Below, piece after piece: positions 9,243 to 21,088 of a DNA stretch of 64,000 nt. Source of the DNA: a virus (Duplodnaviria > Caudoviricetes); IMG/VR virus record IMGVR_UViG_3300020037_004820; one strand, 5' to 3'. The position numbers and the translations under genes were made by a program. Below the pieces are notes generated by a model that worked only from the letters and a program-made list of their open reading frames with translations, was not told the DNA's origin and searched no databases. How positions within the stretch are numbered: the stretch's first letter is position 1; each line of letters opens with the position of its first letter.

Positions 9243-9509
9243 ATGTTCTCTCTGCTTAAGAGAATGTTCCTTTGGGGATTCGATACTCGGGGACATTACT
9301 ATGTCCTTAATTTAGGAATGTGTGCAATTGCTGTCGTTGTTTCGGCAATATTCTTGCCACAATATTTTCAAGATGCTATTAAGCAAGGTAGCGGTTTAAT
9401 GTACTTTATGATGTATATAGATGGTTATATCTATGTAGATAATTTGTATGAACTATATCTGTTCAATAAACAATGGAAAAATCGTGAAAATCAGAGAATT
9501 AATTACTGA
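9243..9509 (+). CDS. Hypothetical membrane protein
   Basis: Hydrophobic segment LGMCAIAVVVSAIFL. Confidence 0.55.
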   Translation: MFSLLKRMFLWGFDTRGHYYVLNLGMCAIAVVVSAIFLPQYFQDAIKQGSGLMYFMMYIDGYIYVDNLYELYLFNKQWKNRENQRINY

Positions 9510-9870
9510 AACCTTGGCAAAGAAAGATATCCATTGGACTTCAATTCATAAATTTTTAGAAGAATTTGGTCAATATAGTTATCCATCTATTGATCAACAT
9601 GAAGATTTAAAGTGTTATGCTATTCATACTTGGGTGTGTACAGATACTTTAGTAGGATACTTTTTATATACGTTCAAAGATGAACCTTGTTGCATTACAT
9701 CGCAAACAGGTAGAAAAAATGATGTTTATTTTCATTGGATCTCAGAAGAGAAATATTTTGAAGTTTTGAAGTTTTGTCTACAATTTGTGCAACCTGAAAA
9801 GCCTTTTATATCAACTTTTGATCTAGATGCAGAAGATGAAACATTAGTAGACAAATATTATTTGCGCTAA
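9448..9870 (+). CDS. Hypothetical protein
   Basis: ORF with WVCTDTLVG segment; true start may be internal. Confidence 0.65.
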   Translation: MNYICSINNGKIVKIRELITETLAKKDIHWTSIHKFLEEFGQYSYPSIDQHEDLKCYAIHTWVCTDTLVGYFLYTFKDEPCCITSQTGRKNDVYFHWISEEKYFEVLKFCLQFVQPEKPFISTFDLDAEDETLVDKYYLR

Positions 9871-14021: not shown

Positions 14022-14384
14022 ATGGCAATTCCCGCCCATGTTCGTTCATTTGCTTCGGTTTCGAATCGCCGCATGGAAAAGCTGAATGGTAAGGACTTCG
14101 ATAAGAAGTCGCATTACATTCATGTTCGTCCGGCAGATCAGGCGGATATTTTGGTTCTCGCAGTTCATGGGGACAATAATGACCCGGATATTTGCGATAC
14201 GGCGCGATTCATCGCTATGAATCCTCGATATGCCGCTATTCTGGCGGTTACGATCGAAGATGTCCTTCGAAACGATCTGAATTTCAACTTCGATAAGGTT
14301 CGTAAGGAGACGTTGAAGCGTCTCGCGAAGAAGTACGAACCTGTTTCGGATGCACAGGAACAGCCGGTTGCGGAAGCTGGCTAA
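14022..14384 (+). CDS. Hypothetical protein with GC-richer codon usage; first gene before the RNA cluster
   Basis: 120-aa ORF after promoter island. Confidence 0.75.
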   Translation: MAIPAHVRSFASVSNRRMEKLNGKDFDKKSHYIHVRPADQADILVLAVHGDNNDPDICDTARFIAMNPRYAAILAVTIEDVLRNDLNFNFDKVRKETLKRLAKKYEPVSDAQEQPVAEAG

Positions 14385-14473: not shown

Positions 14474-14480
14474 AACAAAT

Positions 14481-14608
14481 ACAGAGGTTCCCACAATGTT
14501 CATAGTGAACATAACAGGTACAGCAACGGCTGTTTCCTAAAAGTTGGAACGCTTAGTCGTAATCCCAAACGAGACTGACTGTCTGGTTAACCTCGTGGGA
14601 ACCTCTGT
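14481..14608 (+). ncRNA. Structured ncRNA closed by a 14-bp perfect stem
   Basis: ACAGAGGTTCCCAC pairs GTGGGAACCTCTGT; internal hairpins. Confidence 0.6.
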
Positions 14609-14621
14609 CATAGCTAAATAA

Positions 14622-14696
14622 CTAGGATATAGCTTACCAGACAAAGCAGCTTTGAGTAAAATCAAAGTACACGTTAGGTCGAACCTGCTATCCTAG
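14622..14696 (+). ncRNA. tRNA-like RNA with extended anticodon stem and aberrant T-loop
   Basis: CTAGGATA/TATCCTAG; D stem GCTT/AAGC; GCTTTGA-GTAAAA-TCAAAGT; TAGG-TCGAA-CCTG. Confidence 0.55.
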
Positions 14697-14706
14697 AAAA
14701 GAGAAG

Positions 14707-14795
14707 AGAGTGAATCTCGGTTCGATTCCGAGCGTACCCGATTCGAGGCCAATTCGGGGTAGATTCGTCGTCTAATATGGAATAGGACGCACTCT
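14707..14795 (+). ncRNA. Circularly permuted tRNA-like RNA (T arm, closed acceptor stem, D arm); YrlA-like topology
   Basis: AGAGTG/CACTCT outer stem; CTCGG-TTCGATT-CCGAG; TACCC/GGGTA capped hairpin; GTCT-AATATGGAATA-GGAC. Confidence 0.7.
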
Positions 14796-14802
14796 TAATC
14801 GC

Positions 14803-14880
14803 GGGACTCTGAACGTAATTGGTTAACGTCCCCGCCTCATAAGCGGAAAATTCTGGGTTCAAATCCCAGGTGTCCCACCA
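14803..14880 (+). tRNA. tRNA with CAU anticodon (elongator Met or Ile2, possible TilS substrate)
   Basis: Loop CT-CAT-AA; G1:C72 paired and no GGG/CCC initiator stem; CCA encoded. Confidence 0.9.
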
Positions 14881-14889
14881 AACCATACG

Positions 14890-15673
14890 TTTCTAATCTG
14901 GTCTTAAAAAGCCACTACTCCGAGCACAGTACAATCACCGCTCAGATCAGATTAGAAAGGGCACGTTTAGTGCCCAATTACATGACTAGTGACAAGTCTC
15001 ATTTTGGAGACGGGTAATCAGTCCTCCTTGTCATTAGTCATCTTGATTAAAGAGCATACCAGTTGCACAATTCGGTGCGATCGGTGGAGTCAAAATGCTC
15101 AAAAAGGTGATCTCCTACTCCTAATGAGTTAATCATCATAGATAAAGATAGCTCATCCATCCTGATAAGATGAAGATGGGACTACTCAAGAGAGAGAATG
15201 CCTGGTATCTCCTGAGTATAGTGGAAGGCAAAATAGAATGATACCAACTTAAAATTACATGGATTTGACAGCGAAAGCTGTCTCTAGCTAAGTTTTGGCA
15301 AGAGAAGTAAGCTAGAGTACACAAAAATTGCAAAGGAAACACTCCTCTGCTGGGAATGTCGCCGGTTGTTGTAGTGAGAAGTCGGTGCCGTAAAACTCTA
15401 CATAAGAGGACGAGTATCTCGCAAGGAGAGAAAGGACTTGAGATAGTAGTAATCCGGTGTGTACGTCGATACCTACCAACTCGGGAAAAACGAAGCACAG
15501 TGAATGCGGTTCTGCTGAAGAGATTATGTTGTCAGAGCTATTCAAACTAGTTCGGATGATGTAGTTGAACAGTTTCCGAGCGGGTTCCCTGCCCGCTCAA
15601 TTCAAACACAACAAGGCAACTTAACACAGTCCTTCTGTGAAAACAGTGAGTTGATAGTGTTTCTTTGCCAAAA
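14890..15673 (+). ncRNA. Large (~780 nt) highly structured ncRNA, GOLLD/ROOL-class candidate
   Basis: Long helices (14891-14904/14944-14957; 14982-14996/15027-15041; 15330-15343/15656-15668); GNRA-capped hairpins; no credible ORF; lies between tRNAs. Confidence 0.65.
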
Positions 15674-15676
15674 CAT

Positions 15677-15768
15677 GGAAGTATGGCCGAGTCTGGCTTA
15701 TGGCTACAGTCTAGAAAACTGTCGCGGTCTAACAACCGCCGTAGGTTCAAATCCTACTGCTTCCTCCA
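15677..15768 (+). tRNA. tRNA-Ser(AGA), A34 anticodon
   Basis: ACAGT-CT-AGA-AA-ACTGT; long variable arm; CCA. Confidence 0.9.
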
Positions 15769-16207: not shown

Positions 16208-16633
16208 ATGAAATACTGTCCTAGATGTGATTTAGAGAAAGAAGATGTAGATTTTTCGAAACGAAAGCTACGATCAGGTAAAGAGATTTTACAATCAATA
16301 TGTAAATTATGTAATAAATTAGCGCATAAAAAACATTATATAGAAAATAAACAAGATTATATAGATAAAGCTAAAAAGAATACATTAAAAAATGTTGAGT
16401 TTGTTAATAAACTCAAAGAAGAATCTCCTTGTAAGGATTGTAGTAAGTTTTATCCTTCTTATGTAATGGATTTTGATCATGTATTAGATAAATTATATGG
16501 AATAGCAAATATAGTTAGAGCAAAATCAAGAAAAACTTTACTAGAAGAAATCGCAAAGTGCGAAATAGTGTGTTCCAATTGTCATAGAATAAGAACACAC
16601 AATAGAATATGGGACTATAAGTTAACAGGTTAA
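16208..16633 (+). CDS. HNH endonuclease (Zn-binding); stop codon lies inside tRNA-Glu
   Basis: CxxC..CxxC; CKDC..MDFDH..KCEIVCSNCHRIRT. Confidence 0.85.
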   Translation: MKYCPRCDLEKEDVDFSKRKLRSGKEILQSICKLCNKLAHKKHYIENKQDYIDKAKKNTLKNVEFVNKLKEESPCKDCSKFYPSYVMDFDHVLDKLYGIANIVRAKSRKTLLEEIAKCEIVCSNCHRIRTHNRIWDYKLTG

Positions 16634-17933: not shown

Positions 17934-18401
17934 CTAGACATTTGATTTCTTTTTATTCTTTCCTCGATATGTAGAAGTTTGTGCATGACAGTTCGGACAC
18001 AATAAACATAGATTAGAAAGAGTATTATCCATACAGTTACCGTTTATATGTTCTAATTCCAGTGCAATAGGTTGTCCAAGCCATTCCGTTAATTTACATT
18101 TATTACATATTTTTGTAAATATTCCTTCTCGAATAAGTCTATTTTTAAGTTGAAACGTAAGAATTTCAACTTCGTTATTAAGATATTTTTCAATAGGCAC
18201 ACGAATAGGTAATTGTTTATTTTTTGACCAGGCACAGCCTGTAAAATGAGAATAATCTATATCATATAATGCAGCGAATTTCCTAAAAACACGATAGTTT
18301 CCTCCTTTACCTTTTATGCCAAGTATATTTAGTACATTACTTATTGTAGTTGAAGATTTTACAGCGGCTTCAAATTGTTCTTTGGAATAGGAATGTGACA
18401 T
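17934..18401 (-). CDS. HNH endonuclease, antisense within the tRNA cluster
   Basis: CNKC..LELEHING..DNTLSNLCLLCPNCHAQT; ATG 18401 after AGGGAG. Confidence 0.88.
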   Translation of the reverse strand: MSHSYSKEQFEAAVKSSTTISNVLNILGIKGKGGNYRVFRKFAALYDIDYSHFTGCAWSKNKQLPIRVPIEKYLNNEVEILTFQLKNRLIREGIFTKICNKCKLTEWLGQPIALELEHINGNCMDNTLSNLCLLCPNCHAQTSTYRGKNKKKSNV

Positions 18402-18433
18402 TTGTTGTTCTCCCTTTCCATAAATAGTCATGT

Positions 18434-18510
18434 GGCGGTCTAGTCCAATTGGCAGAGACACGAAACTTAAAATTTCGCAAGTGTGGGTTCGAGTCCCACG
18501 ACCGCTACCA
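18434..18510 (+). tRNA. tRNA-Leu(UAA) with short variable loop
   Basis: CGAAA-CT-TAA-AA-TTTCG; 5-nt variable region; CCA. Confidence 0.88.
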
Positions 18511-19082: not shown

Positions 19083-19159
19083 AATTGGTCATAGCATTAC
19101 TGGATAATGCGTTCCGCTAGTACCGGAAAGATTGGGTTCGAATCCCGAGCCAATTACTA
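19083..19159 (+). tRNA. Atypical tRNA-Thr(AGU), A34; 4-nt connector; 3' end ACTA
   Basis: AATTGGT/GCCAATT; GCAT/ATGC; TTCCG-CT-AGT-AC-CGGAA; TTGGG-TTCGAAT-CCCGA. Confidence 0.7.
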
Positions 19160-20626: not shown

Positions 20627-21088
20627 ATGAAATATTGCCCTAAATGTAAAGAAAATAAAGACGAAAAAGAGTTTAATAAAAATTCTAAAAAAGAAGACGG
20701 TCTACAATCCTATTGTAGAGATTGTCAGAAAAAATCTGATCGAAATTCTTATATAAACAATCCTAAACGGCGAGAAGCTATTAGAGTAAGTGACCAGAAA
20801 CGTATATCAGAGATTAGAAATTTCGTATATACGTTTCTGCTTACACATCCCTGTAAAGATTGTGAAGAAAAAGATCCGATAGTTTTAGAATTCGATCATC
20901 AGTTAGATAAAAAATTTGATATATCAGACGGAATGAGAAGATTTAATTTAGATCGAATTAAATCTGAAATTAGCAAATGCGAAGTAGTTTGTTCTAACTG
21001 TCATAAAAGACGAACTGCAAAGCAATACAATAATTGGAAAATAAAATACGCCGACATAGCACAATCTGTTAGTGCAGCGCACTTGTAA
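20627..21088 (+). CDS. HNH endonuclease, paralogue of 16208; stop lies inside tRNA-Thr
   Basis: MKYCPKC..CKDC..VLEFDH..KCEVVCSNCHKRRT. Confidence 0.85.
   Translation: MKYCPKCKENKDEKEFNKNSKKEDGLQSYCRDCQKKSDRNSYINNPKRREAIRVSDQKRISEIRNFVYTFLLTHPCKDCEEKDPIVLEFDHQLDKKFDISDGMRRFNLDRIKSEISKCEVVCSNCHKRRTAKQYNNWKIKYADIAQSVSAAHL

Follow-up and report, generated by a model that had tools for sequence, protein, structure and literature searches.

The tRNA cluster and its long spacer

The window, that is, the whole 64,000-nt stretch of DNA analysed (IMG/VR record IMGVR_UViG_3300020037_004820), belonged to a large (jumbo) uncultured phage, and the interval under study sat within its tRNA cluster. The window encoded a sigma factor, a tRNA nucleotidyltransferase and HNH nucleases, together with 14-15 tRNAs. 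A 221-kb contig carried a protein identical to one of the window's. One JGI contig (L022) was identical to the window over the whole locus, and contigs of further studies carried pieces of the locus with 0-2 differences. These ruled out an assembly artefact. Runs labelled RNA-Seq were flagged as probably DNA and kept as contigs; they were taken as sequence, not as expression data.

A sequence-only reading of this DNA had placed one ornate non-coding RNA of about 780 nt between tRNA(CAU) and tRNA-Ser. Both flanking tRNAs were indeed called, and the gap between them measured 796 nt. The features of the interval were as follows.

14803..14880, + strand: tRNA-Met(CAT), the neighbour of B on its upstream side in 8 of 8 distinct B-bearing loci
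14890..15045, + strand: Module A, three strong hairpins; variable, 67-172 nt in relatives
15049..15124, + strand: Module B, a pseudoknot of about 75 nt, with covariation in relatives
15125..15260, + strand: Module C, a variable hairpin series followed by an A-rich linker (z +0.2)
15267..15598, + strand: Module D, a conserved domain of about 330 nt, with homologues in 4 other close phages
15608..15674, + strand: Segment E, a GAAA-capped hairpin seen in this phage only
15677..15768, + strand: tRNA-Ser(AGA), the 3' flank of the spacer

No conserved ORF was found in the spacer; among five homologous spacers, the longest stop-free frames varied in frame and strand. A promoter scan gave chance level only.

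Folding of the spacer

The + strand of the spacer folded far better than shuffles (z -6.93, compared with -3.74 for the minus strand), which upheld the structured RNA read there. By module, z was -6.1 for A, -2.2 for B, +0.2 for C, -2.3 for D and -2.9 for E. Much of the folding signal was supplied by the variable 5' hairpins, and the description of the interval as near-continuous helices was overstated.

A GAAA hairpin at 15267-15282 was present as described. The hairpin described as capped by GCAA did exist near 15417-15429, but its stem was 4 bp long, its loop had 5 nt, and it lay in a variable arm. The long-range helix that had been proposed, 15330-15343/15656-15668, could be formed, but it was not conserved and had a pair probability of about 0.01 when the whole spacer was folded. 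In the 3' half folded alone, the probability was 0.25-0.43, in competition with a local hairpin. The alternative pairing of the same 3' segment with 15292-15301 had a probability of 0.00. The 3' strand of both pairings, which Segment E supplies, was absent from all four full homologues.

Homologous loci

No DNA match to the locus was found among 50,697 phage records. A plasmid search gave chance matches only, and scanning IMG/VR, JGI metagenomes and GTDB for motifs brought nothing or chance matches. Protein-led scans of IMG/VR gave no relatives, and a structure model (R2, with helix P1) had no match in 13 phage records. Since direct DNA searches had given none, homologous loci were fetched via a 120-aa protein encoded upstream. 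Four full homologues (L013, L015, L018 and L107), one partial (L021) and three distant ones (L096, L097 and L104) were recovered. Within the close group, the spacer 3' of tRNA-Met measured 664, 737, 796, 1070 or 1146 nt; in two distant phages it measured about 98 or 179 nt.

Both ends of the interval assigned to the single RNA, 14890-15673, turned out to be variable. The conserved parts were 15049-15124 and 15267-15598, which occurred apart or duplicated in relatives. What stood of the earlier proposal was that this phage tRNA array contains a conserved locus for structured, non-coding RNA. The proposed boundaries and main helix were wrong, and a single 780-nt RNA is no more than a possible product.

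Module B

The predicted helices of Module B were as follows.

15052-57/15095-100, + strand: P1
15058-68/15075-85, + strand: P2
15105-07/15120-22, + strand: P3
15086-89/15112-15, + strand: pseudoknot helix

In this layout, P1 surrounds hairpin P2 and a junction, which in turn pairs with the P3 loop, P3 being a 3' hairpin. Eight distinct sequences, 61-83% identical to the window copy, carried B. In seven sequences, 94.6% of the cells were paired, and 17 of 24 pairs showed two-sided change (2 of 4 in the pseudoknot helix). Slid controls were 36-48% paired. Two-sided changes occurred in all four helices. The variety of pair types was convincing, though kinship inflates the counts, and the predicted B fold was strongly supported. 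The held-out L107 copy scored 73 bits.

The distance from tRNA-Met to B ranged from 8 to 172 nt across loci. In L096 and L097, B lay between tRNA-Met and tRNA-Arg, and D was not adjacent. B was not detected in GOLLD loci, ROOL loci or L104.

Module D

Module D opened with a small hairpin and the hairpin P-alpha. A conserved, A-rich linker led into a domain of about 240 nt, which P-beta closed, and the terminal hairpin P-omega came last.

15282..15317, + strand: P-alpha hairpin (helix 2), 97.5% paired, 3 two-sided changes
15335-15339/15573-15577, + strand: P-beta, the conserved closing helix of D; both strands change together in second copies
15371..15510, + strand: raiA-like core, with hairpin 15371-74/15398-401, of which loop 15387-92 can pair with 15505-10
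15578..15598, + strand: P-omega terminal hairpin (helix 6), conserved loop U(U/C)CCCUG, 5 of 8 pairs two-sided

The conserved internal loop of P-alpha is, by inference, loop-E-like. In the five first copies of D, 92% of the helix positions were paired and 11 of 35 pairs were two-sided; as with B, such counts are inflated by the few, related sequences. All the two-sided pairs in the tool count lay within the two 5' hairpins and P-omega, and this count underrates P-beta, where two rows were one column out of register. In the raiA-like core, helix 5 was 90% paired with no two-sided change in the tool alignment. The putative pseudoknot 15387-92/15505-10 was overlapped by a rival helix, 15390-97/15508-15, and both fit equally. 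The predicted outer helices of D were well supported by comparison, and the core weakly. A further pseudoknot, of 15352-56 with the terminal loop, was dropped; L107 lacked it, and in L015 it was out of register.

In L015 and L107, a second, longer copy of D lay in tandem directly 3' of the first. The first-copy profile recovered both ends of the second L107 copy (E 3e-5 and 0.004). A terminal hairpin of the P-omega type was found 3-15 nt 5' of a tRNA in five loci. In L104, where B was undetected, it lay 3-4 nt 5' of tRNA-Arg. The D profiles had no match in L104 or L097, with which only the terminal hairpin was in common, and the D homology of these two loci is tentative.

Other elements of the tRNA clusters

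The 120-aa protein (window 14022-14384), which is without known family, is encoded immediately 5' of the tRNA cluster, and it preceded the cluster in every fetched locus with downstream DNA. It is a candidate partner of the B and D RNAs. HNH endonuclease genes lay between tRNAs at 16208-16633, 17934-18461 (PHROGs-confirmed) and 20627-21088 (by eye).

A second conserved structured element (window 14478-14612), with a long closing helix and a z of about -5, was found between tRNA-Lys and tRNA-Met. It was 79-91% identical in L016-L020, was also present in L021 and L107, and had no match in Rfam. Two tRNA-like elements missed by ARAGORN (window 14620-14795) were both near-identical in L107. The counterpart of the first was called tRNA-Gln(CTG) in L016, and the second was circularly permuted in appearance. 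Several tRNAs (Thr AGT, Ser AGA, Phe AAA and Val AAC; window 19083-19157 and 15677-15768, L107:7251-7327 and L104:11762-11833) had A as the wobble base, an unusual feature in bacteria. A dCMP/MafB19-type deaminase gene lay nearby in L104.

Directly 3' of Module D in L013, a tRNA with a TGA anticodon (9457-9541) was missed by ARAGORN; its best score was to tRNA-Sec (40.6 bits). In L104 (10930-11700), a tRNA gene was apparently split by a group I-like intron bearing a reverse-strand HNH gene, as judged by eye. Bacterial raiA RNA genes often have a ribosome-hibernation gene adjacent. The tRNA cluster of L107 contained a gene for ribosome modulation factor (2823-2993; PF04957).

Searches against known RNA families

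An Rfam search of the spacer gave no match at E<=10, and neither Rfam nor ARAGORN found a group I or II intron, RNase P, tmRNA or self-cleaving ribozyme in it. The GOLLD model (RF02032; gathering 150 bits) had no match at E<=10 in the window and L107, or at E<=1 in L013, L015 and L018; five known GOLLDs from the accession list of PMC12286853 served as positive controls and scored 151-216 bits. The ROOL model (RF03087; 99 bits) had no match here, while the ROOL controls scored 214 and 261 bits, and the B and D profiles had no match in the ROOL of EFDG1 and Lb338-1. Membership in GOLLD or ROOL, which the sequence-only reading had entertained, was not borne out. Its remark that the RNA may be new held, as no catalogued family matched. 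The B/D locus is absent from Rfam and from the literature searched, a scope that leaves aside the sequence sets of Fremin 2023 (PMC10690425) and Weinberg 2017 (PMC5737381).

The raiA model (RF03072; 101 bits) had no match, the positive controls for the models being GOLLD and ROOL only. The D profiles did not match a Nonomuraea raiA-like locus (identified by motif), and local alignment of D with raiA was not significant (best p 0.04 of 9 tests). On the other hand, the putative strands GCCGUA/UGCGGU of D agreed with GCCGCA/UGCGGC of the Nonomuraea raiA at 5 of 6 positions each. In raiA, PK1 connects the P3 loop with the P5-P6 linker. The PK1-like strands of D paired in all five first copies, with two-sided change only in L015 (hand alignment) and none in the tool count. 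D was built of three units in series with a motif order unlike that of raiA. The end-closing P1 and the P3b stem of raiA were both lacking, and the order P3-P5-PK1-P6 did not occur.

Interpretation

We lean towards the reading that B and D are two separable structured RNAs outside the catalogued families, encoded in a spacer that is otherwise filled with variable hairpins. This modularity rests on B alone in L096 and L097, D doubled in L015 and L107, the terminal hairpin without detectable B in L104, and spacer lengths of 664 to 1146 nt within the close group. Folding and comparison of the sequences establish the strand of B and D, their separability and their association with tRNAs. From standard tRNA-operon biology, we infer that both would be co-transcribed with the tRNA cluster. 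Cutting by host RNase P at the 5' end of the next tRNA, together with the 3' trimming that matures tRNA-Met, would release the RNA, and the terminal hairpin would shield the 3' end of D. B, C and D are always collinear in the five close phages and no tRNA intervenes, so a single molecule would be released unless it is cut again. Given the structure, action in trans is the function that we favour, tentatively. B and D might act during infection as stable, compact RNAs; as scaffolds or decoys, they would engage the machinery of translation or of tRNAs. Their conserved unpaired loops would be docking sites for RNA or protein partners, as proposed for GOLLD, ROOL and raiA.

The main rival to this modular reading is a single GOLLD-like RNA with separable domains. 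It would be an ornate RNA of about 700 nt that assembles into a cage as GOLLD and ROOL do, GOLLD forming a homo-oligomeric nanocage, with a variable 5' part (A/B/C) and a conserved 3' part (D), and the distant relatives would have lost a domain or hold linker tRNAs. The size and setting are GOLLD-like, the order is constant in five phages, and GOLLD-like short motifs occur, as does a terminal hairpin whose loop is conserved. Nothing visible divides B from D in this phage. However, B occurs alone in spacers of 98-179 nt and D duplicates without B, no B-D pairing was noticed in an unsystematic look, and neither the GOLLD nor the ROOL model scores. We consider a single RNA rather unlikely. We give no more weight to D being a rearranged, enlarged raiA-motif RNA, which would be compatible with two modules. 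The pseudoknot strands, matching at 5/6 each, are accompanied by a similar hairpin context and three more raiA-like short motifs. Against these stand the missing match to RF03072 or the profiles, the alignment that was not significant, the different motif order and the lack of P1 and P3b. The strands are about 115-123 nt apart instead of about 55, and the overlapping, competing helix fits as well. The raiA likeness of D is a lead with a small chance of proving true, not membership.

B and D may instead be processing or stability signals that work in cis on the tRNA precursor, with B possibly a self-cleaving ribozyme. This would fit with tRNA-Met always preceding B, with a tRNA lying 3-15 nt beyond the terminal hairpin in five loci, and with the size and invariant unpaired bases of B, which are typical of small ribozymes. 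It fits poorly with a tRNA-Met-to-B distance of 8 to 172 nt, the lack of a ribozyme match in Rfam, and D being both duplicated and big for a processing signal. To our knowledge, the topology of B is unlike those of the pistol, twister and HDV ribozymes, which we counted against a ribozyme. A cis role or ribozyme activity of B is less likely than the trans and single-RNA readings, and appears doubtful. A neutral, hairpin-rich spacer or a set of decayed tRNAs is very improbable. A, C and E do vary, and the fold of C is no better than that of shuffles, but two-sided changes occurred in four helices of B at 61-83% identity and in three of D. For B and D, the neutral reading appears largely refuted.

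Beyond the two-module reading, B and D may represent two new phage RNA classes shuffled and duplicated in tRNA operons, D having a rearranged raiA-type fold and B being a new ligand-binding or self-cleaving pseudoknot. We regard this fuller version as improbable. Structured RNAs in phage tRNA arrays are a known kind; new here are B and D, outside Rfam. The functions of GOLLD, ROOL and raiA are still open, and the locus contributes two covariation-supported folds from the same setting. Its natural variants, with B alone, D doubled and possibly D without B, resemble experiments in deletion and duplication, and the small size of B permits direct tests of cleavage, binding and structure. A true raiA link would reveal the extent to which the raiA fold tolerates rearrangement, and a raiA-type D would tie raiA to tRNA or translation during infection.

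Comparison with known systems

Species I and II of phage T4 are small stable non-tRNA RNAs embedded in a tRNA precursor. B and D resemble them as non-tRNA RNAs within such a precursor, with no likeness of sequence or structure noticed. ROOL (RF03087) is alike in its occurrence in phage tRNA islands, its pseudoknots and a hairpin near the 3' end, and differs in that its model gives no score.

GOLLD (RF02032; PMC12286853, PMC12990946) is alike in the phage tRNA array, the upstream tRNA-Met, the span of 700-800 nt, the variable 5' and conserved 3' parts, and the terminal hairpin with a conserved loop. Short motifs in common include CAAAAG and GAGUA. A Met-tRNA precedes the env-38 GOLLD, and tRNAs may occur in GOLLD linkers (PMC12286853). 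The P27 terminal loop of GOLLD is GUAAUCUCA, with P26 directly before it, whereas the loop of the locus is U(U/C)CCCUG and its P26-like motif lies about 120 nt upstream. The P15-P26 layout of GOLLD could not be mapped onto the locus. Unlike GOLLD, the locus has no score with the model, and its modules separate or duplicate.

With the raiA motif (RF03072; PMC10861870, PMC12968392), D has in common similar pseudoknot-like strands and several short motifs. It differs from raiA in motif order, in its larger size and in its setting in a phage tRNA array.
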